Notes: generated from the sequence alone by a model not told the origin. A stretch of 26,357 bases of DNA from Candidatus Pacearchaeota archaeon (GCA_016866975.1 VGKP01000013.1:1-26357); one strand, 5' to 3'; shown: positions 7,401-25,779, counted from the stretch's first letter. Numbers and translations: made by a program.

Positions 7401-7459
7401 TTAATTCTAAAATTAATTGGTTATATCTCTTTTTTAAACATCTATTCTTAAAAATCAAA

Positions 7460-7564
7460 AAAACGATGCGCCACTGCGGCTTAAACCTCGAGGATGTGAA
7501 TCCTCGATGGCAGTCAGGAATCTTAGATTCCTGATGAGCCGCAGTTTGATGCAGGCGCTCGTTT
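7460..7564 (+). repeat. Structured dispersed element, copy A (multibranch fold)
   Basis: AAACGA/TCGTTT, GCGCC/GGCGC and CTGCGGCT/AGCCGCAG enclose hairpins CGAGGAT-GTGA-ATCCTCG and TCAGGAATC-TTA-GATTCCTGA; homologous copy at 17396..17474. Confidence 0.85.
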
Positions 7565-7566
7565 CA

Positions 7567-7673
7567 CCAAGAACATTGTTCTTGGATGCCATCAAGAATA
7601 GAAGATTCTTGAGGTTTGGATGCTCAAGGAACAACTCCAGCTTAAAAGCTGGAGTTTTAGTCAAGTTCCTTGA
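7567..7673. repeat. Array of REP-like palindromes
   Basis: CCAAGAAC-att-GTTCTTGG (7567-85), TCAAGAAT-agaag-ATTCTTGA (7592-7612), TCAAGGAAC...GTTCCTTGA (7624-73) enclosing AACTCCAGCT-taaa-AGCTGGAGTT. Confidence 0.85.
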
Positions 7674-7680
7674 CATAAAA

Positions 7681-7902
7681 TGGCCTCGAGGGGATTTGAA
7701 CCCCCGACACCTGGATTTCCTAAGAAACCTACGGTTCGTCAAGGACGAAGTCCTTGAGCACGCTCAGGAATCTTTGATTCCTGACGTCTTGTGGGTCAAC
7801 TTCCCTCAAGAAAATGCCTTATGTCCCCGAGGAGGGTTCATAAGGGTAACGTAGTTCCCTTATTAAGAGTCCAGTACTCTGACCGGGCTGAGCTACGAGG
7901 CC
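7681..7902 (-). tRNA. tRNA-Lys(CTT) with 147-nt anticodon-loop intron; CCA not encoded
   Basis: Acceptor GGCCTCG/CGAGGCC+A, D arm GCTCAG..., anticodon arm CTGGA-CT-CTT-AA-TCCAG after splicing, T arm GGGGGTTCAAATCCCC; 75-nt mature tRNA; upstream TTTTTAAA. Confidence 0.95.
7717..7863 (-). other. tRNA-Lys intron (147 nt; 7716..7862 if spliced at 38/39)
   Basis: Closed by TAAGGGAACTACG/CGTAGGTTTCTTA stem; contains four internal hairpins. Confidence 0.9.
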
Positions 7903-7938
7903 ATAAAACACAAAGCAAGAGATGATTTAAAAAAGTAT

Positions 7939-8262
7939 CTAGAGTAATTTTATTCTATAATTATTAATGGCATTTCTGAAAAAATCTCTTACGGAGTGTT
8001 CAGAGGGAAAATCAAAATGACTGCATAATTTTGAAGGAGTACTGCCAATAAGAATATGATATAATAAAAAGCTATCGACATCAGGGTATTTTAATTGCAG
8101 ATCTCTGGCAAAATCTCTTCTATTTTTATCAAATACCCTGTCCTCATCTGCACTAGCCAATTCTTCAAACTGAGTCCTAACATGATGCATCTCTAAATTT
8201 TCCTGTGACGTCAGGCCTCTCGCCTCAAGTGCTATCCAATATCTTCCTATATCCCATTCCAC
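7939..8262 (-). CDS. Hypothetical protein (LLYHILIGSTP...FDF motif)
   Basis: 107 aa ORF; GTG start supported by TTTAAATA at -29..-22. Confidence 0.7.
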   Translation of the reverse strand: MEWDIGRYWIALEARGLTSQENLEMHHVRTQFEELASADEDRVFDKNRRDFARDLQLKYPDVDSFLLYHILIGSTPSKLCSHFDFPSEHSVRDFFRNAINNYRIKLL

Positions 8263-8320
8263 AAATAAAGCGTCCAGGTCATCTATTTAAATCTTAGCTT
8301 TGTAATTTTTAAGATTAATA

Positions 8321-8629
8321 TCAACGATATTTTCTCCATGTATGCTTGCATTTTGTGCATTTATAGAACTTAGTCTCTGATTCATCACTTGATCTTGTCT
8401 GTGTGGTCCAGAAATAAGCCTTCTTGTTCTTACACTCTGGGCAGACCATATCAATCACCGGATAAGTATTATCTGCCTCTTCATTTATGACTGCCACGGT
8501 TTCTTTCTTCATTATCTTTTCAGATGCTTCTATTTTTGGCTTTTTTTTACCTTTATGGCCACATGCTGCACATACTGCACGGTCATTAACTATCTCAATA
8601 ATACCGCCACATTTTTCGCAAAATTCCAT
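8321..8629 (-). CDS. tfs: Transcription elongation/cleavage factor TFS
   Basis: Two zinc ribbons; QTRSSDE with intact acidic DE pair; C-terminal CTKCKHTWR. Confidence 0.93.
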   Translation of the reverse strand: MEFCEKCGGIIEIVNDRAVCAACGHKGKKKPKIEASEKIMKKETVAVINEEADNTYPVIDMVCPECKNKKAYFWTTQTRSSDESETKFYKCTKCKHTWRKYR

Positions 8630-8650
8630 CGCATTAATAGAGACTTACTT

Positions 8651-8658
8651 CTTTTAAA
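8651..8658 (-). promoter_or_regulatory. TATA box of tfs (AAAGC-TTTAAAAG)
   Basis: -29..-22 from the ATG with purine-rich BRE. Confidence 0.7.
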
Positions 8659-9295
8659 GCTTTGGTTGAGTCGATCCTCTACAGAAACCTCTCTCATCAG
8701 CAGGTTTCATGAAGTCGAAGAATATCAATTTCACCCAGCCAAGATAAGGTATTCTTCCTACAGCCACTCCCTGTATTCTGCTTATGGATATATTTATCTC
8801 ATCAACTCCTGCTCTGTTGTTAGAGAATTCTGGATTAGCGACCAGCTGAAGATTGTTATTGTCTCCTTTTGTCTCTATTGGATCTGTACCTACGACTCTA
8901 TGTATTATGGGGTAATATCTTGAAGCGGTTGGATGCGCATTGAACACTATGACATCTCCCTTATTATATTTCTTCCCACCAACAAGAAAAATTATGTCTC
9001 CTTTGTTAAGCCCGTTCACAAATCTATAAGATTTGAAATCTTCCTTAGAAACACCATATAATGAATAAAGGTCTCCATTGATTCCCCACCAATCATCTAG
9101 CACTTGTTCATGATACATAGAGCATGACTCAATTATGACTATAGGAAGTGATGTGCCTGTAACAAGTGAAAGAAGAGGAAATAATACAAATTTTATAACA
9201 ATTATTATCAAGACAAAAGAAACCATCCAAGATTTCCAGGAATCCTCTTTTAGAAACCTCCAGATCTTGATTCCATATTCTTTGAATCTATCCAT
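8654..9295 (-). CDS. Signal peptidase I (archaeal/ER-type S26)
   Basis: TM anchor, SCSM Ser box, GDVIVF, IIHRV His box, GRIPYLGW. Confidence 0.9.
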   Translation of the reverse strand: MDRFKEYGIKIWRFLKEDSWKSWMVSFVLIIIVIKFVLFPLLSLVTGTSLPIVIIESCSMYHEQVLDDWWGINGDLYSLYGVSKEDFKSYRFVNGLNKGDIIFLVGGKKYNKGDVIVFNAHPTASRYYPIIHRVVGTDPIETKGDNNNLQLVANPEFSNNRAGVDEINISISRIQGVAVGRIPYLGWVKLIFFDFMKPADERGFCRGSTQPKL

Positions 9296-9377
9296 TCAAT
9301 AAAATCGTAAGAAGACTTTAAAAATACTCGGTAGTCGCAATCGCCACATTTTTATACACCAAAACATTAATAGTACT

Positions 9378-9956
9378 ATGGACTTTGATTCAGTTATAGA
9401 CAAGAGGCACTCTGTAAGAGCTTTCAAAAATAAGAAAGCAAGTTGGAAGCTCGTATTAGATGCAATTGATGCTGCAAATCAAGGGCCATTTGCAGATAAC
9501 ATAAACCCGCTTAAGTTTCTGATAATCGAAGAGCAGTCTACAATTGACAAGGTCTCGGAGCTATCAGGACAACTATGGATAAATGAATCAAGTATTTTAG
9601 TCATAGTCTGTTCAGATGATACTCATCTTGAACACCTTCACGGCCAGCGTGGAAAGAGATATTCAAGGCAACAATCTGGGGCAGCCATAAATACCTTCAT
9701 TCTAAAATTAACAGACCTAGGCCTCTCATCATGCTGGGTAGGGGCATTCACAGACGATCTAATAAAGCAACATCTCAAGATTCCAGGACATATTGAAATA
9801 GAAGCAATCATCCCTATTGGTTATGAAAAGACAAAAAGCAACAAAAGAAGGAAAAGACCTTTGGAAAACACTCTCAATTGGGAATCCTGGGGTTCCACAA
9901 AGCGCCCCTCATTATTCAACGAAGATGCTCCCGACCCAGATTTGATAGAGTCGTGA
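9378..9956 (+). CDS. Nitroreductase family protein
   Basis: I.KRHSVRAF FMN-binding start, LGLSSCWVG, IPIGY. Confidence 0.9.
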   Translation: MDFDSVIDKRHSVRAFKNKKASWKLVLDAIDAANQGPFADNINPLKFLIIEEQSTIDKVSELSGQLWINESSILVIVCSDDTHLEHLHGQRGKRYSRQQSGAAINTFILKLTDLGLSSCWVGAFTDDLIKQHLKIPGHIEIEAIIPIGYEKTKSNKRRKRPLENTLNWESWGSTKRPSLFNEDAPDPDLIES

Positions 9957-9960
9957 TCAC

Positions 9961-10115
9961 TCCTGCAGATGAAACTCAACTTTCATCCTGTCAAGAACTT
10001 TGTTCTTGAGCACGATCAAGAATTGCGTTAAACCAATTCTTGACGCATCAGAGTTTTTGAAAAAAATTACTGATGGGATGATATTATTCCTGCAGATGAA
10101 ACTCAACTTTCATCC
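9961..10115. repeat. 28-bp direct repeats (9961-9988, 10088-10115) flanking a 99-bp triple-hairpin insert
   Basis: TCCTGCAGATGAAACTCAACTTTCATCC is identical twice; insert has TCAAGAAC-ttt-GTTCTTGA, TCAAGAATTG..CAATTCTTGA and CATCAG..CTGATG. Confidence 0.92.
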
Positions 10116-10473
10116 CATCGGGATCCTTAGTGAATATGGCAGTTCCACCGTATCCATCATCAGTTATTCCATTATCTTCCATTTCTATTCCCATTTTACG
10201 TAAGGTTCCCTCTATTTCATCCAAGTCTTCTCTGGTATCAATCTTAAAAGCCCAGTGATTTAGTCCTAGTTTCTCAGGATCAAAAGTCTCGTCTTTTCCA
10301 ATTACCAATTGAGAATTCGCGAGCCATAGTGAAAACATTCCATCGGTCAAACCACAAACATCTTCCTCATCATGCATTACTTCCATCCCACATACATCTC
10401 TGTAGAAATCACGTGATTTAGAAATATTCCGCACAATCAAAGTAATATGATGAACTCCAGTTGTTGTAACCAT
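10084..10473 (-). CDS. VOC/glyoxalase family protein
   Basis: GVHHITLIVRNISKSRDFYRDVCG, LNHWAF, IFTKDPDG.KVE. Confidence 0.9.
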   Translation of the reverse strand: MVTTTGVHHITLIVRNISKSRDFYRDVCGMEVMHDEEDVCGLTDGMFSLWLANSQLVIGKDETFDPEKLGLNHWAFKIDTREDLDEIEGTLRKMGIEMEDNGITDDGYGGTAIFTKDPDGMKVEFHLQE

Positions 10474-10623
10474 AAGTAAAAATGAAAAAGAAGATAATTA
10501 AACCTTTTTATTTTTTAATTAATACCTTAACAAAACTCTTCGAGTTTTAACCTCTACCTAAGGTAGAGGATTTCTACGAGCGTTAATAAAACCAAAATTT
10601 TCAAATTGTTACATATAAATCAA

Positions 10624-10668
10624 GGAGCCTCTTTCGAGGCCCCTCAAGAGAAAAATAAAAAAAAGGGA
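10624..10668 (-). terminator. Probable ftsZ terminator (oligo-T tract plus GC hairpin)
   Basis: Minus-strand T-rich run about 20 nt after the stop, then GCCTC-GAAA-GAGGC hairpin. Confidence 0.5.
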
Positions 10669-10688
10669 AGTTAATAAGAACTTTGTCT

Positions 10689-11768
10689 TTATCTGAAGAC
10701 TTCGATGCCTAAATCAGACATCTCTGACTTCATTGAGGCTTCTTCACGGAAGGCTTTCTTACCAAGGACATAAGGTGATCTGACACCCGTCATGATAGTA
10801 ATAACTCTGACGCGATTAGCGAATTCCTTATTGACGCGAGCTCCAATAATTACTTGGGCATCCTGGCTGATGTTCTCTGTTACAAGCTCACCAACTCCTG
10901 CGAATTCCTCAAGCTTGAAGTCAGGGCCGCAAGTGATGTGGATCAAAGCTCCTGTTGCTCCTTTATAGTCTACATCGAGCAAAGGATGTGTCAAAGCTTG
11001 CCTGACTGCTTCATCTACTCTTGCTGTTGTGTCAGATTCTCCAACGCCGATTACTGCTACGTCGCCATTCTTCATAATAGCTGAAACGTCTGCATAGTCT
11101 AAGTTAATCAATGATGGCAAGGTAATAGTTTCCACTATGCCTTTGATCATTGTACTGACTAGCTCGTTAGCTACTGCGAATGCCTGCTCCATAGGCAAGT
11201 TTCCAGCGATATCTACCAGTCTATTGTTATCAATCACGATAACAGTGTCAACAACTTCTGTAAGTTCCTGCAATCCAAACTCTGCTTTGTCATGTCTTGC
11301 TTTTTCACACTCAAACGGCATTGTGACTACTCCTATTACTACAGCTCCAGATTCTTTAGCAAGCTGTGCAACAACGGGTGATGCTCCTGTTCCGCTTCCT
11401 CCCCCCATTCCTGTGAGGACGAAGACCATATCAGCTCCAGATGCAGACTTCTTAAGCTCAGACAAAGATTCCTTTGCAGCTTCTCGTCCCTTGGCAGGAT
11501 ATCCCCCGCATCCAAGACCACGTGTAAGCTCTTTTCCGATAAGTATTTTCTCATCTGCCTTTGTTATGCTCAAATGTAATGCATCAGTGTTGATAGCATA
11601 AATAGAAGCTCCATTTATTCCTTTGTTGAATAGCCATGTCGCCATATTGCTTCCAGCTCCTCCAATACCAAATACTTTGATATTGGCTTTTCCAGCTCTC
11701 AATTCATCAAAATTGATGCTATGCGTCTCCGCATTTTTGATCGCCTCTTTTGCAAAATCAAGTACCAT
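10689..11768 (-). CDS. ftsZ: Cell division protein FtsZ (C-terminus resembles the FtsZ2 type)
   Basis: GIGGAGSN, GGGSGTG, NLDYAD; ends DLGIEVFR. Confidence 0.96.
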   Translation of the reverse strand: MVLDFAKEAIKNAETHSINFDELRAGKANIKVFGIGGAGSNMATWLFNKGINGASIYAINTDALHLSITKADEKILIGKELTRGLGCGGYPAKGREAAKESLSELKKSASGADMVFVLTGMGGGSGTGASPVVAQLAKESGAVVIGVVTMPFECEKARHDKAEFGLQELTEVVDTVIVIDNNRLVDIAGNLPMEQAFAVANELVSTMIKGIVETITLPSLINLDYADVSAIMKNGDVAVIGVGESDTTARVDEAVRQALTHPLLDVDYKGATGALIHITCGPDFKLEEFAGVGELVTENISQDAQVIIGARVNKEFANRVRVITIMTGVRSPYVLGKKAFREEASMKSEMSDLGIEVFR

Positions 11769-11775
11769 GTTTTTT

Positions 11776-11782
11776 ACCTCCT
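11776..11782 (-). promoter_or_regulatory. Shine-Dalgarno site of ftsZ
   Basis: AGGAGGT 7 nt before the ATG. Confidence 0.8.
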
Positions 11783-11913
11783 TTCAGTTAATATTTATGT
11801 TTTTTCAAAGGCCACTTCACTATTTATACTTGACGATACCAGATTATATAAGAATGAGAAGATAAAAAGAGTGAAAATGATAATTTTATAAGGAAAAAAC
11901 CACATATATATAC

Positions 11914-12447
11914 ATGATAAAAAAGTCTTCTGCATTCGATAAGTTTGTAAATTTCAAAACTAAGAAGAGAGCAGATATCACGACTCTCTTTGAGCACCCA
12001 TCAGCCTTCAAAGGAGTTGTAGATGAGATGACGAAACCATTCGGAAAAGTGAAAATAGATAAGATAGTAGGATTAGATGCCTTGGGATTTATCCTGGCGA
12101 GTGGAATGGCCTTAAAAATGAGAAGGCCTTTGATACTTATAAGAAAAAAAGGAAAATTGCCTTACCCGTCTAGTGCGTTACTAAGGATTGATGCAAGAGG
12201 TGTAAAAACGGACAAAGATAATAATCCAAGCAGGAAGTTAGAGATAAGAAAAGATTCTATTAAGAAAGGAGATCAGGTTCTATTGGTAGATGAATGGATC
12301 CACACAGGAACACAAGTGCTTGCAGCAGTAAAGATTATAGAAAAATTAGGTGGGAGGGTAGTAGGAATTGCATGCTACAGTGCCAATCTTAACGAAAAAA
12401 CTAATGTCTTATTCGATAAGTACAATCTCAAGCAGGTCCGCAAATAG
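11914..12447 (+). CDS. apt: Adenine phosphoribosyltransferase-like type I PRTase
   Basis: IVGLDALGF, IRKKGKLP, PRPP loop VLLVDEWIHTGT (variant); substrate not certain. Confidence 0.72.
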   Translation: MIKKSSAFDKFVNFKTKKRADITTLFEHPSAFKGVVDEMTKPFGKVKIDKIVGLDALGFILASGMALKMRRPLILIRKKGKLPYPSSALLRIDARGVKTDKDNNPSRKLEIRKDSIKKGDQVLLVDEWIHTGTQVLAAVKIIEKLGGRVVGIACYSANLNEKTNVLFDKYNLKQVRK

Positions 12448-12454
12448 ATTGAAC

Positions 12455-13489
12455 TTATATTCTCTTCAGTCTATCCATGAATTCTGCAATATACTTTAAA
12501 GGAAATAAGCACCCAGATGCGGCTTTATGCCCGCCTCCATCTGAATTCTCAAACCCTTCGACTATTTTTCTTGCGAGTATAGACACATCTTCTCCTCTAT
12601 CTTGCCTTCTAAACGAGCATTTTACAAGGTTATTAGACTTTCTGTAAATGACGATTGTCTTATCTGGAATTTTATGGCTTCTATCGTTAATTACAACCTC
12701 TCTTATTGGAAATATCCCTTTGAATTCCCATACATATCTTCCATTTATCTCCTTCTTCTCAGAATCAAAAGACTCTAATGCTTTATCGACCTCTTCTTGC
12801 ACTTCAGCTATATGTCCTCCCAAGATGCCAAGTTCGCCGAACTGCCTGGGAAATCTATCGTAAAAATCATATATTGTATCTTTATAATATACTAAAGCAA
12901 GATAAAGTTTGTATTGAAAATCCCATATCTTGCTATCTTTTACCTCTTCATCTCCAGGAACGAACTCTCCTCCATATTTTTTATATACTTCTGACAAGAA
13001 ACCTCCATTTGACTTCCATGCCCAATCAGATAAGGATGCGCAAGCAACCGCCCAATCCCAAGATTTCAGTTCTTGTATTTGTGAAAATAAAAAATAACAG
13101 AGATAGGCTGCGCACATTCCTTGAGCGTTCATATATACTGTCTTTTCAGAATTGAAATCTTCTATTATCTGATGATGATCTATTATCAATATTTTTGCAA
13201 AAGATTCCAATTTAATGAATTTGTCTTTGGTTTTAAAATTCAGGTCAGTCATGACGACCTTGGTCACACCTTCTTTCCTTAGTTCTTCTATAAGTTCATC
13301 ATTCAATTCCTCATATCCTACGAGCCTAACTATATTTGGATCAATGGCTTCACTGACTATTTTTGCAGAAACTATGCCATCCAGGTCAGACTTGTGACTA
13401 ACTACTGCAATCACATCTTTATCATCTAAAGAACCAACATATTCAGCAAACCTTTTCTCATTCCCAGTAATCCAATTGGGTTTTTCCAT
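12455..13489 (-). CDS. DHH/DHHA1 family phosphoesterase
   Basis: SHKSDLDG, MTD, IDHH, GGGHKAASG. Confidence 0.9.
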   Translation of the reverse strand: MEKPNWITGNEKRFAEYVGSLDDKDVIAVVSHKSDLDGIVSAKIVSEAIDPNIVRLVGYEELNDELIEELRKEGVTKVVMTDLNFKTKDKFIKLESFAKILIIDHHQIIEDFNSEKTVYMNAQGMCAAYLCYFLFSQIQELKSWDWAVACASLSDWAWKSNGGFLSEVYKKYGGEFVPGDEEVKDSKIWDFQYKLYLALVYYKDTIYDFYDRFPRQFGELGILGGHIAEVQEEVDKALESFDSEKKEINGRYVWEFKGIFPIREVVINDRSHKIPDKTIVIYRKSNNLVKCSFRRQDRGEDVSILARKIVEGFENSDGGGHKAASGCLFPLKYIAEFMDRLKRI

Positions 13490-13506
13490 GCTCAGGTGAT
13501 TGATAC

Positions 13507-14178
13507 TTATACTCTTTCTAAAATGACAGAATTAATGCCATTTTGCAAGCAGAGAGATTCAAATCTTTTAGCATCATCAATCGTGCCTACTACTCCAGAC
13601 CCATAATGCATGGGGATTGCCAGATCAGCACCTAACATCTTGGCCACGTCTGCAGCGTCTTCTGCAGTCATTACATAAGTCCCAGAAACAGGCAACAATG
13701 CCACAAACTCATTTCCATGTTTCCCATATCCTGTAAGCCTCTCCATGTCAGGTATCTTGTCTGTGTCTCCTGCATGGTAGATGATTACCCCATTAAATTT
13801 GATCACAAAGCCAAGCCACCTCTCAGATTTTGGATGAAAATCATTCCCGACATTATATGCAGGTACGGCTTCTATTTTGACTCCATCCATCTCAAGTTCA
13901 TCACCAATCTCCATTATCTGCATTTGGACATCATCGATTCTCGTTATCTTGCTTTGTGCATCAGGGGACGTTATTATCGTAGTCCCTTTTTTTGACATCT
14001 TAGCAATATCTTTTATGCTGCAGTGGTCAGAGTGACTGTGTGTGACAAGTATGTAGTCTGCTTTTCCAGCAGCATCTGATACATTATATGGATCTATCGC
14101 TATCCTTTTTCCATTACTATTACTTATCAAAAAGCCATCGTGGCCTAAAAATTCAATGATGACATCTTTTATCTTCAT
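13507..14178 (-). CDS. Metallo-beta-lactamase fold hydrolase (UPF0173-like)
   Basis: LGHDGF, THSHSDH, YHAGDT, IPMHY; start 14178 from TATA spacing. Confidence 0.9.
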   Translation of the reverse strand: MKIKDVIIEFLGHDGFLISNSNGKRIAIDPYNVSDAAGKADYILVTHSHSDHCSIKDIAKMSKKGTTIITSPDAQSKITRIDDVQMQIMEIGDELEMDGVKIEAVPAYNVGNDFHPKSERWLGFVIKFNGVIIYHAGDTDKIPDMERLTGYGKHGNEFVALLPVSGTYVMTAEDAADVAKMLGADLAIPMHYGSGVVGTIDDAKRFESLCLQNGINSVILERV

Positions 14179-14352
14179 CAACAATCAATCTTTACTTAAT
14201 TTATAAGCTTACTGGTGATTGACATGAAAGATTTAAATATGAGGAAAAATGGGCAGTTGACGGCCATATTACAGATATTTCATTCGATACATACTGGCAG
14301 GCATGAGACTGATAGTTTTTTATTGCACTATTTTGACCAACATTAAGAGGTA

Positions 14353-15645
14353 TTAAGAAAATTTCCCTGCTATCTTCAACGCCTTTAAATCATTTCCTTT
14401 GGCACACATTACCTGTAAGCCGACAGGTATATTTTCCACAATTCCCGATGGTACAGCAACAGAGCATATACCGGCCAGATTCGCAGGGCAAGTAAGTGCA
14501 TCAGCAGCATATACTTCTTCAATGCTCATCTTGTCCCCCTCCCCAACCTTCCATGGCAATATTGGGCACACAGGTATTATTATACAGTCTACTTTGCCGA
14601 AAGCTTTTGAAAATTCTTCTGATATCATTTGTTTAATTTCCAATGATCGTCTATAATATGCTCCCGCGTGTTCTGCTTTAGTGATCTCGCTCCCTCCAAG
14701 TACTCTCCTTAACACTTCCTTGCCGCACTTATCTTCAAACCGATATCCGTACCTCCTTCCATCAAACCTCCTTGTCCCAGAATAAAACTCTGAATATACG
14801 AGAGGATAATATGTCTGTACAGCAAGCCCTATGTTTTCAAGTTCTATTTCTTTTATAAGCCATTTATTAATCTTTGCGACCTCTCTTAGTTTATGTTCCA
14901 CAATTTTATGAATCCTTGAATCTATTCCTTTTATCTTTAAAACTCCTATATTTATTGTATTCCCTTCATCTTCCTTTATGTCTTCACTCATAGTATCTCT
15001 CTCATCTCTACCTGATATAACTTCAAACAACAATTTAGCATCCTCAACATTTTTTGCTAGTGGCCCTATCTGATCAAGGCTCATCGACAGGTCTACAAGT
15101 CCATATCTGGAGACTGCGCCATAACTTGGCTTCATCCCAACTATCCCGCAATGCGAGGCGGGGGCCCTTATGCTCCCTCCAGTATCGCTTCCTAGTGCAA
15201 CATCGCAAAAACCTGCTGCTACTGCCGCAGCACTACCGCTGCTGCTTCCTCCAGGTATTTTTCCCAATGCAGCAGGGTTCTGTGTTGGTCCAAATGCGCT
15301 ATTTTCCCCACTTACTCCTGCCGCAAATTCATCCATATTTGTCATCCCTATTATAACTCCATCTTCTCCCTTGATCTTAGAAATGACAGTAGCATCATAA
15401 GGTGCGACATAGTTCTCTAAGACACGCGAAGCGCAATTACATATAATCCCTTTTACATTTATATTACTCTTTACAGCCACTACGAAACCATAAAGCTTTC
15501 CTTTCTTGCCTGTCTTTTTAAATTTTTCATCCACAGCTCTTGCCTCCTCAACAACTTTATCGTTAAGATGTAAGAACGCATTAATCTTGCCATCCTCTTT
15601 TTTTATCTTTTCCAGAAACTTCTTTACTTTATCTTCTACACTCAT
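14353..15645 (-). CDS. gatA: Amidotransferase subunit A (amidase signature)
   Basis: VAVK, GMTNMDEFA, GGSSSGSAAAV, GSDTGGSIR, DQIGP; start MSVED with TTAATAAA at -29..-22. Confidence 0.88.
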   Translation of the reverse strand: MSVEDKVKKFLEKIKKEDGKINAFLHLNDKVVEEARAVDEKFKKTGKKGKLYGFVVAVKSNINVKGIICNCASRVLENYVAPYDATVISKIKGEDGVIIGMTNMDEFAAGVSGENSAFGPTQNPAALGKIPGGSSSGSAAAVAAGFCDVALGSDTGGSIRAPASHCGIVGMKPSYGAVSRYGLVDLSMSLDQIGPLAKNVEDAKLLFEVISGRDERDTMSEDIKEDEGNTINIGVLKIKGIDSRIHKIVEHKLREVAKINKWLIKEIELENIGLAVQTYYPLVYSEFYSGTRRFDGRRYGYRFEDKCGKEVLRRVLGGSEITKAEHAGAYYRRSLEIKQMISEEFSKAFGKVDCIIIPVCPILPWKVGEGDKMSIEEVYAADALTCPANLAGICSVAVPSGIVENIPVGLQVMCAKGNDLKALKIAGKFS

Positions 15646-15687
15646 ACCGATTTTGAGAATTAGCACTTTATTAATCTTCCTTTACAA

Positions 15688-15918
15688 TCAATGTACTAGT
15701 TCCTTTGCTCTCTGTTCTAATGCTTGCTTTTGAGAAGCATCCATCTTTCCATATTTATCAGAATGTGCTTTCTTGAAATGTTCAATCATTTTCTCGGCAG
15801 TCTCATCAATATTTTTACCTCTTGCCACAAAACCACATTCCATGTTTCCTAATGAGTAACAGTTCAATTCCAGCTCATTCAAACCGGCGCGTGCTTTGTC
15901 AGGATCTGCCTCTTCCAT
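15688..15918 (-). CDS. DUF1059-like small metal-binding protein
   Basis: C....C.FVARG...E......H....H pattern. Confidence 0.75.
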   Translation of the reverse strand: MEEADPDKARAGLNELELNCYSLGNMECGFVARGKNIDETAEKMIEHFKKAHSDKYGKMDASQKQALEQRAKELVH

Positions 15919-15997
15919 ATTATTATAAGAAAATAAGAAGTTTATGAACCTTTCTTTTGTACAAAAACAAAGTCGTGTCTAAGGTTTATACAAAGGC

Positions 15998-16507
15998 TTA
16001 CCAGCTTATATTCTTCACAGGCTTCTTAATATACATAATCTCCTGCAATTCATAGACTTCCATGGTGCTTTCAACTTGATCGTCAAAATATCTTATCTGA
16101 TATTCCTTATCATTTTTGTCAAATACTTCTATAGTCATCTCTTTAGTGCTCCCATGATCCATTAAGACATAATGAGCATCTACCTCTAATTCCACACCAT
16201 CTATCTTTATCTTGTCTCCTTTCTTGATCTTTGATACTGGTCTAGATGCACTTACCTTGGGAGGTTCTGACGGCCCATTATGGTTCATCTTCTCTATAAC
16301 ATTAACTGCATCTTCAACCATGTCATCCATGTCATCCATATCATCTTCATCTACTGTCTTCTTTTTCACTTTCGCAGGCTTGGATGCAGGAGCATATTCT
16401 ACATCTTCATCATCACCAAATGCATCATCCAAAGACATCCCTTCATCATCACTTTTATCCGCATTTACTTTCCCTGCTTCTTTCTTTTTTGTTTTTTTAG
16501 CTACCAT
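15998..16507 (-). CDS. Hypothetical protein with acidic linker and beta-rich C-terminal domain
   Basis: ATG overlaps the gatC stop (ATGGTAG); Asp/Glu-rich middle. Confidence 0.78.
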   Translation of the reverse strand: MVAKKTKKKEAGKVNADKSDDEGMSLDDAFGDDEDVEYAPASKPAKVKKKTVDEDDMDDMDDMVEDAVNVIEKMNHNGPSEPPKVSASRPVSKIKKGDKIKIDGVELEVDAHYVLMDHGSTKEMTIEVFDKNDKEYQIRYFDDQVESTMEVYELQEIMYIKKPVKNISW

Positions 16508-16743
16508 TTCTTCTTCTCCGCGATAATGCAATCCTCATCTTTATTTGGCGCGTTAGCAAGTAACATATCTCTGAACGCCTCATCTCCAGATGCTCCCTTC
16601 CCCTCTTCTCTGAATCCTCCAACTCTTTCTTCATTTTTCTTTTTGGAAATCTTAATCTTGGACAACGCAGAGCTGAACTTTTTCAATATTTCTTGTACTT
16701 CTACTTTAATCTTTTCCTTTTCTTTCTCAGAAATTGCATTCAT
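16501..16743 (-). CDS. gatC: Amidotransferase subunit C
   Basis: 80 aa; N-terminal helix, FREE, LANAP..ED..I motif; near gatA. Confidence 0.78.
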   Translation of the reverse strand: MNAISEKEKEKIKVEVQEILKKFSSALSKIKISKKKNEERVGGFREEGKGASGDEAFRDMLLANAPNKDEDCIIAEKKKW

Positions 16744-16764
16744 ATTTGTGAAAGAAAGCTTGAA

Positions 16765-16772
16765 TTTATAAA
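16765..16772 (-). promoter_or_regulatory. TATA box of gatC (TTTATAAA)
   Basis: -29..-22 from the ATG. Confidence 0.7.
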
Positions 16773-16964
16773 GCTAATGTAGTGAAGTTTACTTTCTTTT
16801 AAAAAAATACTGCATCGATCCTCTCTTTAGTAATGATTTTTTTAATCTTGTAAGGATACTCCTTGAAAATCCCCTAAAACAAGTAGTCTCATTACCAATG
16901 CAAGAAAATCTTATTAAAAAAAATATCTAGTAAAATATAAATACAGACCAAGGTTAAATTTTTA

Positions 16965-17234
16965 ATGGATATTAGATTGGTGAAAGATTCTGATCTTCTA
17001 AAGAGGTCTTCACTCTACCGAGAATTCCAAGCAGAACGCGAAGAGGTTCTAAGGCATAAGTGGATAGAATCTGAGAAAGCAGGTTATGACATAGGTTTTG
17101 AACATGCCCTAATCGATTGGATAATTCATCATCGCTCTAAATGGAGAACGTGGAGAAAACAAAACTGCCCAGAGTGTCCATATTATATGAAAAAACCCGA
17201 GAGCAATCCCTTGCTACCAAATATTAAGTTTTGA
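16965..17234 (+). CDS. DUF4032-like small protein
   Basis: SLYREFQAEREEVLRHKWIESEKAG.DIG...A..DW motif; TATAAATA at -29..-22. Confidence 0.7.
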   Translation: MDIRLVKDSDLLKRSSLYREFQAEREEVLRHKWIESEKAGYDIGFEHALIDWIIHHRSKWRTWRKQNCPECPYYMKKPESNPLLPNIKF

Positions 17235-17395
17235 GTACCACAATTTCTTTTAGAAGAGATTTGTTTCATGCATGATGCTGAACAAGTACATAAATTCCCA
17301 ATTTAGATTGGAAAGCAACTAGAGGAAATAGGTAAATTAAGAAGTAATAATTCAAAGGCATTTTCATTTAACCATCCTTCTCTTAGACTATCACT

Positions 17396-17474
17396 AAAAC
17401 GATGCGCCACTTCAGATTCATTATAGAAGAAGTTAATCTTAAATGGCAGTCAGGAATCTTAGAATCTTGATGAG
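17396..17474 (+). repeat. Structured dispersed element, copy B (degenerate)
   Basis: 16/16 identity to 7460-75, 30/32 to 7507-38, identical 47-nt offset between motif starts. Confidence 0.85.
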
Positions 17475-17502
17475 GTGTGTTTTTGGTCGATTCTCAACAT
17501 AA

Positions 17503-18897
17503 TCACTTCTTCTTTTTCTCTTCCTTTTTAGGAACATCCAATTTAATGAATACTTCCTTGAGCTGCTTCTCGCTTACTGAAGACGGAGTATCAAGCATGA
17601 CGTCTTGTGCAGCTTTATTCTTCGGGAAAGCAATCACATCGCGGATAGTGTCTGCGCCGATAATAATCTGAATAAACCTGTCGAGGCCAATAGCATACCC
17701 TCCGTGTGGCGGCGCTCCATACGACAAAGCATGCAGCAAGAAACCAAACTTTTCCTCTGCTTCTTTCTCGTCAATGCCCAGAACTTTAAACACTCTCTTT
17801 TGAATTTCTGGATTATGGATGCGAATGCTGCCACTCAGCAATTCTGTTCCATTCAAGACCAGGTCATACGTCTTCGCCTTCACTTTCAAGGGCTCTTTCT
17901 CAAGCAAAGTCAAATCAGAGGGCATGCAGAACGGATGGTGCGCAGCAACATATTTCTTCTCTTCCTCAGAGTACTCAAAAAGCGGAAAGTCCACAATCCA
18001 GGAAAAGGCATACTTCTCTCCGGTCTCCTTGCGCAAATCGGGCTTGTCAGAGTTGTACTTCTTCATCGCCTCTGCATACGGAATCCTCCGAAACGGCGTC
18101 TTCAGATCCTGATGAAGAACCTCCTTAAACAACGCCTTCATGAGCTGCTCAACACTCGAATAAATATCTTCTTCATTAACAAACGACATCTCAACATCGA
18201 GTTGCGTAAACTCCGGCTGTCTATCTGCACGCAAATCCTCATCGCGTAAGCAGCGCGCGATTTGAAAATATCTATCCATTCCCGATACCATCAAGAGTTG
18301 CTTAAATAATTGCGGCGATTGCGGGAGAGCATAGAATTTGCCTGCATGAACACGGCTCGGTACAAGATAGTCGCGCGCTCCTTCCGGCGTTGATTTTGCA
18401 AGTAAGGGTGTCTCAAACTCCGTAAATCCTTCCTTGGCAAAGAAACTACGAATGGTCTGCATAATCCTGCCGCGCAAATGGAGATTGCGCTGCATGCGCT
18501 CGCTGCGCAAATCAAGATAGCGATACTTCATCTTCACATCCTCATTGACCTCTGCATCATTGAGCATAAACGGCAGAGGCGGACAAGGATTCAATACCTC
18601 AAACGCCTCACAAAAAACTTCAATGCTCCCTGTAGATAGCTCTTTATTCTCAGTTCCTGCCTTCCTCTTCACCACTTCCCCAACAATCTTCACGCACGAC
18701 TCCAGCGCAATGCTCTTTGCCTGCTCAAATCCCTTGCTTTTCTTAATCAAAACAACTTGCACAACTCCATATCTGTCCCGCATATCCAAAAAAACAACAC
18801 CTCCATGCGCTCTTACTGTCTGCACCCATCCACATAATTGCACTTTCTTTCCCACATCTTTTCCGCTTAATTCTCCGCATGTATGTGTTCTTAACAT
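17503..18897 (-). CDS. aspS: Bacterial-type aspartate--tRNA ligase lacking the GAD domain, non-discriminating signature
   Basis: RTHTCGEL, TPEGARDYLVPSR, LPQSPQLFKQLLM, RDEDLRADRQPEFTQ, PPHGG.A.GLDR; H31 and G81; DKPDLR joined directly to AFSWIVDFP. Confidence 0.95.
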   Translation of the reverse strand: MLRTHTCGELSGKDVGKKVQLCGWVQTVRAHGGVVFLDMRDRYGVVQVVLIKKSKGFEQAKSIALESCVKIVGEVVKRKAGTENKELSTGSIEVFCEAFEVLNPCPPLPFMLNDAEVNEDVKMKYRYLDLRSERMQRNLHLRGRIMQTIRSFFAKEGFTEFETPLLAKSTPEGARDYLVPSRVHAGKFYALPQSPQLFKQLLMVSGMDRYFQIARCLRDEDLRADRQPEFTQLDVEMSFVNEEDIYSSVEQLMKALFKEVLHQDLKTPFRRIPYAEAMKKYNSDKPDLRKETGEKYAFSWIVDFPLFEYSEEEKKYVAAHHPFCMPSDLTLLEKEPLKVKAKTYDLVLNGTELLSGSIRIHNPEIQKRVFKVLGIDEKEAEEKFGFLLHALSYGAPPHGGYAIGLDRFIQIIIGADTIRDVIAFPKNKAAQDVMLDTPSSVSEKQLKEVFIKLDVPKKEEKKKK

Positions 18898-25647: not shown

Positions 25648-25779
25648 CGGGTCCAGGAGGAATCGAACCCCCGTTACAGCGTTCCTTCGCTCCTTTCCAA
25701 AAGGGAGGTTGAACAAAAAGGAACAGTCGGGTTCCTTATACTCCGAAGCGCTGCGTTCTATCCACTAAACTATGGACCC
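25648..25779 (-). tRNA. tRNA-Arg(TCG) with 60-nt intron at 37/38 (25683..25742)
   Basis: GGGTCCA/TGGACCC+G acceptor; CAGCG-CT-TCG-GA-CGCTG after splicing; BHB core CTTC/GAAG with 3-nt bulges; 72-nt mature tRNA. Confidence 0.95.

Follow-up and report, generated by a model that had tools for sequence, protein, structure and literature searches.

Palindrome-associated transposable elements (PATEs), for example those of Haloquadratum walsbyi (PMC3119063), are gene-less derivatives of insertion sequences (IS) of the IS200/IS605 family. Together with the repetitive extragenic palindromic (REP) sequences of bacteria, they are the closest described counterparts of the TCARGRA hairpin repeats analyzed here, which lie in a 26,357-nt stretch of DNA (the window; GCA_016866975.1, VGKP01000013.1:1-26357) from a Candidatus Pacearchaeota archaeon. 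REP sequences, which with the bacterial interspersed mosaic elements (BIMEs) and REPINs are associated with RAYT (TnpA-REP) transposases, are extragenic palindromes of about 20 nt that are present in high copy number and commonly as doublets (PMC6006769, PMC3116915), and they carry the tag GT[AG]G at 0 to 2 nt 5' of the hairpin foot (PMC6006769). The IS200/IS605 family transposes by a "peel and paste" process, in which a circle of the top strand is cut out and then joined into single-stranded DNA at a point 3' of a short, specific target (PMC5027513), and it was the most widespread IS family in archaea in a 2026 survey (PMC13343696). Transposable elements of the miniature inverted-repeat type (MITEs) with terminal inverted repeats (TIRs) reach very high densities in some DPANN genomes according to a census (PMC11602168).

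The window corresponds to contig C13 of the metagenome-derived genome G000 (805.7 kb in 31 contigs, 89 % complete), which was compared with 16 other genomes of the same genus. A first-pass annotation of the window had interpreted nine related hairpins as a non-autonomous mobile palindrome system. Mobility was borne out, but the single palindrome was not the unit that moves; a 123-nt element with two stem-loops and a 50-nt double hairpin take its place. The TCARGRA palindromes are probably modules of lineage-specific, non-autonomous elements that are built from hairpins and moved as single-stranded DNA. The kind of element is already known, being PATE-like or REP-like, and the modular family itself is new in the literature searched, which included PMC11602168 and PMC13343696 and in which no description of the family or of its nested architecture was found.

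The hairpin family and its core element

All nine reported hairpins are present in the window. Those at 7514, 7567, 7592, 7739, 7764, 9991 and 10016 have perfect stems of 8 to 10 bp, and the earlier description needed correction in three details: the foot at 7567 reads CCAAG instead of TCAAG, the arm at 7624 pairs with 7665-7673 in a 9-bp stem that is the outer one of an extended stem-loop, and the hairpin at 17450 is imperfect, with two mismatches. One additional family hairpin, absent from the earlier list, occupies 7488-7507 and has the foot TCGAG. A family-specific scan of the 805.7-kb genome recovered 72 hairpins, compared with 4.05 ± 2.2 in 20 shuffled genomes, and all of the well-formed members are outside coding sequence, so that both the copies beyond the window and the positional bias foreseen at first reading were found, the bias being a confinement of true members to non-coding DNA. 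The arm changes are mostly compensatory, as had been reported: stem positions 3, 4 and 6 match in 61 of 85 cases, where independent arms would give 23.6, in a test anchored on invariant letters only and with the count of 61 inflated by kinship among copies. Five arm classes were distinguished, each with a matched partner arm. Five of the nine listed hairpins are parts of a larger element with sharp boundaries, which they represent in two copies, and the other four make up two double-hairpin units of 50 to 57 nt.

The larger element, referred to here as the core, is about 123 nt long and gave 61 strong matches in the genome, each with the same end bases, to a profile built from 36 aligned copies with their flanks. 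On the strand read from the left tip (the GTC strand) it opens with GTCAAGGAAC immediately after TTAT, and its sharp ends enclose a left tip, two stem-loops and a right tail ending in GGCGCATCGTTTTTTTGAT. Each stem-loop is composed of an outer stem, a one-sided internal loop of 8 nt, an inner stem and an A/T loop, and the outer stem of the first is a TCAAGGA-type member of the hairpin family. Subfamily 2 is about 80 % identical to subfamily 1 and keeps both stems via compensatory changes; chimeras between the two subfamilies and one-stem fusion variants also occur. Both strands fold as single-stranded DNA into two bulged hairpins (z about -9.6), and T-runs follow the stem-loops on either strand.

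The coding capacity of the core was also noted. In subfamily 1 the 123 nt amount to 41 codons with one frame open on the GTC strand, and the junction of TTAT with the first G of the element creates an ATG; subfamily 2 has a stop codon in this frame. Five copies are in frame within called open reading frames (ORFs), at C8:6414-6537, C8:20765-20888, C9:22273-22395, C19:4465-4587 and C22:4-127, and the ORFs that hold them include a DDE-type transposase-like gene (identified by eye; C8:20620-21891); in two other cases the element falls in the N-terminal region of a very large protein.

Two core copies are found in the window, both on the minus strand. The first (7454-7674) is a 221-nt composite that runs from GTCAAGGAAC to TTTTTTTGAT and consists of a 120-nt core with two nested double-hairpin units of 51 nt and 50 nt. 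Its three core segments match, with 100 % identity, some 40 uninterrupted copies in which they are contiguous, and near-identical composites were located at C3:37442 and C2:40331. The target tetranucleotide TTAT (7675-7678, minus strand) adjoins the element on its 5' side, 3 nt past the 3' end of the tRNA-Lys gene. The first core stem-loop (7624-7673, minus strand) has the outer stem TCAAGGAAC/GTTCCTTGA, the 8-nt one-sided internal loop and an inner stem of 9 bp; under the IS200/IS605 model it would be the hairpin of the left end. The second copy (17390-17498) is a decayed one-stem variant of 109 nt, delimited from a by-eye alignment with C5:44966, C15:4918, C2:40559 and C8:30865. It retains the left tip, one stem with a double-hairpin unit in its loop, in which 17450-17470 is the surviving hairpin, and the right tail, and its TTAT at 17499-17502 abuts the aspS stop codon (17503-17505). 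A role for the core as a tRNA trailer was considered and rejected; only the window copy closely abuts a tRNA, and most copies do not.

The left flank is constrained over 43 copies (T in 37, T in 32, A in 40 and T in 37 at the four positions), and the right flank of the same copies is unconstrained and merely AT-rich in general. The two tips are unrelated to each other in the 36-copy alignment and in the single-strand folds, and the core therefore lacks terminal inverted repeats and falls outside the TIR-type MITEs, with only an ambiguous AT common to both ends. Empty sites carry a single TTAT, and no clear target duplication was seen. A classical cut-and-paste miniature element, mobilized by a DDE transposase and duplicating an AT dinucleotide, is in our estimation very improbable. 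Each copy is bracketed by AT on both sides where the empty site has one AT, a 2-bp AT duplication being formally possible because the element also ends in ...GAT, and a DDE-type transposase-like gene is present on contig C8. Such an element would be expected to have related tips in the form of terminal inverted repeats, whereas here the tips are unrelated, conservation reaches the TT before the left AT and stops at the right AT, and orientation is strand-specific (see below), which is unexpected for a symmetric double-strand mechanism.

Occupancy differs at every comparable locus, because sites that are filled in G000 are empty in G010 and G016. At the 3' flank of tRNA-Lys, G000 reads TTTTAT, the 221-nt composite and then TTTTAA, whereas in G010, where the gene order is kept and tRNA-Lys faces the winged-helix gene, the sequence reads ...TTTTAT^TTTTAA...; no element is present at this flank in G016 either. 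After aspS, the stop codon in G016 is followed by TTAT and no element, and in the G016 tRNA-Lys intron the unit site is empty (CAAGGA^ACCGTAGG). Elsewhere in its genome G016 has 38 family matches, and the family as a whole was found in 12 of the 16 other genomes of the genus, with 2 to 38 matches each, the genomes free of it being G004, G007, G010 and G012. The search for empty sites in sister genomes that had been suggested by the first-pass annotation thus succeeded at the tRNA-Lys flank, at aspS and in the intron, and the identical occupancy expected of conserved terminators was not observed. Since these are dispersed, non-coding, structure-conserving repeats with present and absent sites, the interpretation as mobile DNA rather than conserved terminators is supported.

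A wider host-function explanation, in which the copies are multi-copy small RNA genes, terminators or protein-binding hairpins held by selection, appears quite improbable. The stems kept by compensation, the T-runs after the stem-loops on both strands and the position of several copies at gene ends would all be in keeping with it, but it does not predict occupancy that differs among close relatives at all compared loci, nor copies in all types of intergenic region including divergent promoter regions, nested in one another, within tRNA introns and in frame within ORFs. The family also has no Rfam match: a covariance scan of the window at E<=1 returned only two tRNAs, and a canonical copy and three other contexts, including the mosaic upstream of serS and that of C21, gave no match above the gathering score. 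A hammerhead or C/D-box reading of CTGATGA, made by eye, was dropped because the CTGA lies paired in a stem.

The core works like a PATE and shares most of the features of these elements, being non-coding and within 100 to 250 nt. Its ends are unlike, have hairpins in subterminal position and lack inverted repeats, it is inserted beside a specific short motif that is not clearly duplicated, and a Y1 transposase is encoded in the same genome. It differs from PATEs in that no parent IS sharing its ends was found, in the placement of a hairpin 1 nt from the presumed cleavage site, in an interior that is highly modular (two-stem, one-stem and composite forms) and in its very high density, about 75 copies per Mb in a 0.8-Mb genome.

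The double-hairpin unit and tRNA introns

The smaller element is a double hairpin of about 50 nt. Genome-wide there are 22 such doublets, each consisting of a hairpin, a spacer of about 6 nt and a second hairpin, with spacers of the types TGGCAG/TGGCAT, GCRCGM and TGACCG, and in its stem feet the unit is similar to the outer stem of the core's first hairpin. Two units are nested in the composite core. The first, of 51 nt (7486-7536; hairpins 7488-7507 and 7514-7534, spacer TGGCAG; fold z -6.2), sits in the loop of the second core stem-loop, as determined by filled/empty comparison with uninterrupted cores, and the second, of 50 nt (7565-7614; hairpins 7567-7585 and 7592-7612, spacer ATGCCA; fold z -6.2), sits in the opposite orientation in the T/A run between the core stem-loops. 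Another 50-nt unit (7737-7786; hairpins 7739-7757 and 7764-7784, spacer GCACGC) is located in the tRNA-Lys intron within a 34-nt repeat module, and copies of this unit with 91-95 % identity were found at C2:56458 and C9:2215. A 57-nt unit (9989-10045; hairpins 9991-10009 and 10016-10043, spacer GCACGA) occupies the spacer between the nitroreductase and VOC genes; its first hairpin is identical to one in a tRNA-Thr intron (C16:9476), and the spacer content at the corresponding site in G008 and G016 differs from that in G000.

The unit is present or absent to the base, as 50 to 51 nt and with no duplication, at three host sites, namely the loop of a core stem-loop, the core A/T run and the 34-nt module. 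Upstream of serS on contig C2, one tandem copy of the 34-nt module is filled and the next one is empty; the module in the tRNA-Lys intron is filled in G000 (7737-7786) and empty in G016. One host position can hold units that differ in hairpin content. Composite cores were also seen in the relative G005, and the change at the core sites may therefore be either gain or exact loss. The small unit behaves as a discrete entity, whether gained or lost, and presumably moves by itself and not through recombination.

The tRNA-Lys(CUU) gene (7681-7902, minus strand; Rfam tRNA, 45.6 bits) contains a 147-nt intron (7717-7863) between positions 37 and 38, and the presence of family hairpins in a tRNA intron, one of the features first noticed in the window, is confirmed by the unit at 7737-7786 within it. 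The exon ends were fixed by intronless orthologues in 5 of 14 congeners; ARAGORN miscalls the tRNA at 7681-7902. Across these 14 congeners the gene is intronless in the same 5, and in the rest the intron measures 22, 52, 58-68 or 147 nt, always at 37/38 and with mostly unrelated sequences. The 52-nt intron is orthologous in G001, G002 and G009, and its interpretation as a mobile double hairpin is unsupported because it is single-copy in each of these genomes. The first hairpin of the window intron (ATAAGGG...CCCTTAT, 7840-7863) matches a 45-nt unit that occurs in five tandem repeats next to tRNA-Pro (C7:4853-5064). In the tRNA-Thr(UGU) gene (C16:9434-9559), a 51-nt intron contains one family hairpin, equal to window 9991-10009, followed by an unrelated hairpin. 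Besides the units in the Lys and Thr introns, others lie close to tRNA-Leu (at 23 nt), tRNA-Glu (at 42 nt) and tRNA-Ala (at 49 nt). A second intron-bearing tRNA of the window (25648-25779, minus strand; Rfam 51.4 bits, Arg-TCG according to ARAGORN) has an intron of about 60 nt with a hairpin at 25718-25737 that is not of the family.

The unit at 9989-10045, together with 41 nt of unique sequence, is bracketed by 28-bp direct repeats of the 3' end of the VOC gene (9961-9988, minus strand, and 10088-10115; 100 % identical over 28 nt). Both copies encode the last nine VOC residues and the stop codon, and only 1 nt separates the stop of the outer copy from that of the nitroreductase gene. Some 127 nt seem to have entered the 3' end of the VOC gene with a duplication that preserved the C-terminus. 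A different short repeat, with 3 to 4 further copies in the genome, lies at 10532-10590; its hairpins (10532-10548 and 10551-10569) are unrelated to the TCARGRA family.

The small unit functions in the manner of a REP doublet yet falls outside the canonical REP sequences, as it has neither the tag nor a RAYT. Common to both are short, high-copy extragenic palindromes arranged as doublets, a conserved stem foot below an upper stem that co-varies, and a presumed mobilization in trans by a Y1 HUH enzyme. The GT[AG]G tag is absent here, the letters before the feet being CC, CG, TC or CA, and the two hairpins are each self-paired across a fixed 6-nt spacer instead of pairing into a single long REPIN hairpin. 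No RAYT is present in the host, which is an archaeon, and the units are also nested in other repeats and in the intron of a tRNA. Rickettsia palindromic elements and pneumococcal BOX elements are modular hairpin repeats in reduced genomes as well, with some copies tolerated in frame in protein genes or in RNA genes. They have no sequence relation to the present family, in which the target motif and the strand bias point to single-strand transposition.

Insertion mechanism and candidate transposases

The reading that is preferred here has two layers. In the first, the core of about 123 nt would be excised and inserted as single-stranded DNA by a Y1 (HUH) transposase of the IS200/IS605 type, landing 3' of TTAT without target duplication and on the strand exposed as the lagging-strand template. 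In the second, the double hairpin of about 50 nt would be gained or lost exactly in loops and A/T runs of other repeats, in the tRNA intron and in ordinary spacers. The core agrees with "peel and paste" in its one-sided TTAT, in having hairpins near both tips and in the occurrence of just one TTAT where a site is empty.

The orientation of the core copies follows the strand composition of the genome. Orientation switches in just 6 of 39 neighboring pairs, and all 12 copies on C3 point in one direction and all 7 copies on C2 in the opposite direction. It matches the sign of the local GC skew in 52 of 61 copies, and in 43 of 50 after a coding-strand correction in which plus-strand and minus-strand genes were averaged separately, with the qualification that copies that share descent or sit on one contig are not independent counts. 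Taken by contig majority, 12 contigs agree with the corrected skew, one (C1) disagrees and one is undecided (sign test, 12 versus 1, p ~0.003). The correlation of orientation with gene-strand bias is lower (r of 0.39 against 0.65). In most prokaryotes the G-rich strand is the leading strand, and if this applies here the GTC strand lies on the lagging-strand template. IS608, ISDra2 and their relatives insert in the lagging-strand-template orientation (PMC5027513).

Genomic position is less specific than had been proposed from the window, where the hairpins were seen to cluster at convergent gene ends. The neighboring genes were correctly named (winged-helix, nitroreductase, glyoxalase/VOC, a weak DUF4032 match and the class II aminoacyl-tRNA synthetase gene aspS), and several element copies do abut gene ends. 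The preference for convergent junctions does not hold genome-wide, since of 53 cores 31 are in tandem, 11 in convergent and 11 in divergent spacers, against 63, 19 and 19 % of all spacers, as classified with a crude ORF-based gene caller. Free units are for the most part in tandem or divergent spacers.

An alternative that dispenses with a dedicated transposase is the spread of modular repeats by host recombination, gene conversion or replication slippage, which would give BOX-like mosaics with the 50-nt unit as a recombining module. We regard this as unlikely. Several features of the family would suit it, in particular the subfamily chimeras and one-stem fusion variants, the units with differing hairpin contents at the same host positions, the opposite orientation of the two units in the composite, and the three element-rich relatives described below in which no Y1 gene was detected. 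It leaves unexplained the one-sided TTAT at about 40 unrelated loci, the orientation bias that goes with strand composition, and the clean empty sites at unrelated loci.

Transposition by a Y1 enzyme requires a source, and the Y1 transposase that the first-pass annotation had sought outside the window is present, with PF01797 matches at three places in the genome. The intact gene at C10:122-586 scores 77.8 bits to the IS200/IS605 model NF033573, and the HUH motif and catalytic Tyr of its protein align to the solved TnpA structures 2ec2/2a6m; a second IS200-type Y1 gene is broken across two contig ends. The RAYT type suggested by analogy with bacteria was not found: by score the Y1 genes belong to IS200/IS605 TnpA, and the three Y1 proteins tested get no further than 31 bits with the RAYT model NF047646, for which the cut-off is 80. 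TnpB (PF07282) was not found in the genome, and the idea of a TnpB/omega-RNA system was dropped. The expectation that the transposase gene would be flanked by the same palindromes, in the way that the typically single-copy RAYT genes have their REPs beside them, also failed, in that no family hairpin is present beside the C10 gene.

Two observations hint at a link between the C10 gene and the repeats. The 5' region of C10 tnpA joins two alternative upstream contigs, and in one of these contexts a right-tail-like end (30/35 identical, with 0 of 300 shuffles reaching the score) is found just upstream of a 127-nt contig-overlap segment that runs into the tnpA start. The similarity of the sequence downstream of C10 tnpA to subfamily 2 was not significant (15 of 500 shuffles). 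The nearest relative of the C10 enzyme among the congeners is encoded in G009 (36 % identity), where a related IS, present in four copies, has a TCAGGGAG/CTCCCTGA hairpin, with a foot like those of the family, in its left end, upstream of tnpA. The link of the C10 enzyme to the element is only suggestive, as is the co-occurrence of Y1 genes and elements, with a Y1 gene in 7 of 13 genomes that have elements and in 0 of 4 without them, among 17 genomes that are incomplete and related. That a Y1 enzyme moves the elements is our inference, and so would be the choice of any particular one for this role.

Exact 127-nt overlaps join contig ends at both Y1 loci, C2 (right)/C21 (left)/C10 (left) and C6 (left)/C12 (right). 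The two upstream contexts and one downstream contig at C10 suggest an unassembled second copy or a strain-level rearrangement at the transposase. In a self-comparison of the genome, contigs frequently break within element copies; the repeats together amount to 15.5 kb, or 1.9 % of the genome.

A number of points weigh against single-strand transposition of both layers. The left-end and right-end hairpins of the IS200 type (complete in G003, and in G000) are unrelated to the family, and these IS ends were rejected as its source. A scan for a parent element, with the left tip and right tail 0.3 to 5 kb apart around an ORF, found only neighboring separate copies and no full-length element with such ends around a transposase gene, in a rough search whose pattern for the left tip did not capture subfamily 2. 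G005, G008 and G016 are element-rich yet have no detectable Y1 gene in assemblies that are incomplete (about 10 contigs in G008) and of a kind in which IS copies are often unassembled. The presumed cleavage site is only 1 nt from the start of the hairpin, unlike that of IS608, and the AT on both sides of each copy leaves room for a 2-bp duplication. The skew polarity of the lineage is assumed, and with it the relation of skew to replication direction, since the assembly consists of 31 contigs with no mapped origin. The two nested units of the composite are in opposite orientations on one host strand, an arrangement not expected from strictly strand-specific insertion, and the filled and empty pairs of the small unit may reflect exact loss instead of gain.

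Significance for the genus

A further-reaching proposal, which we advance tentatively and consider doubtful in its full form, is that the family corresponds in archaea to the REP/BIME system but is driven by an ordinary Y1 enzyme of the IS200 type without a RAYT, and that double hairpins and 34-nt modules accrete in tRNA introns, so that the introns of this genus grow, and perhaps arise, by module capture. Ultrasmall symbiotic archaeal genomes are usually described as streamlined. The present genome gives about 2 % of its DNA to one family of hairpin parasites, which breaks assemblies, occupies tRNA introns and is sometimes read through in proteins. For annotation, these repeats should be masked so that they are not miscalled as small genes or as N-terminal extensions. 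If the single-strand mechanism is true, the orientation of the elements could mark the direction of replication in uncultured archaea whose origins are unmapped. The tRNA-Lys series in the genus, with intronless, short-intron and module-laden forms of the gene, provides a concrete system for studying how archaeal tRNA introns gain sequence.

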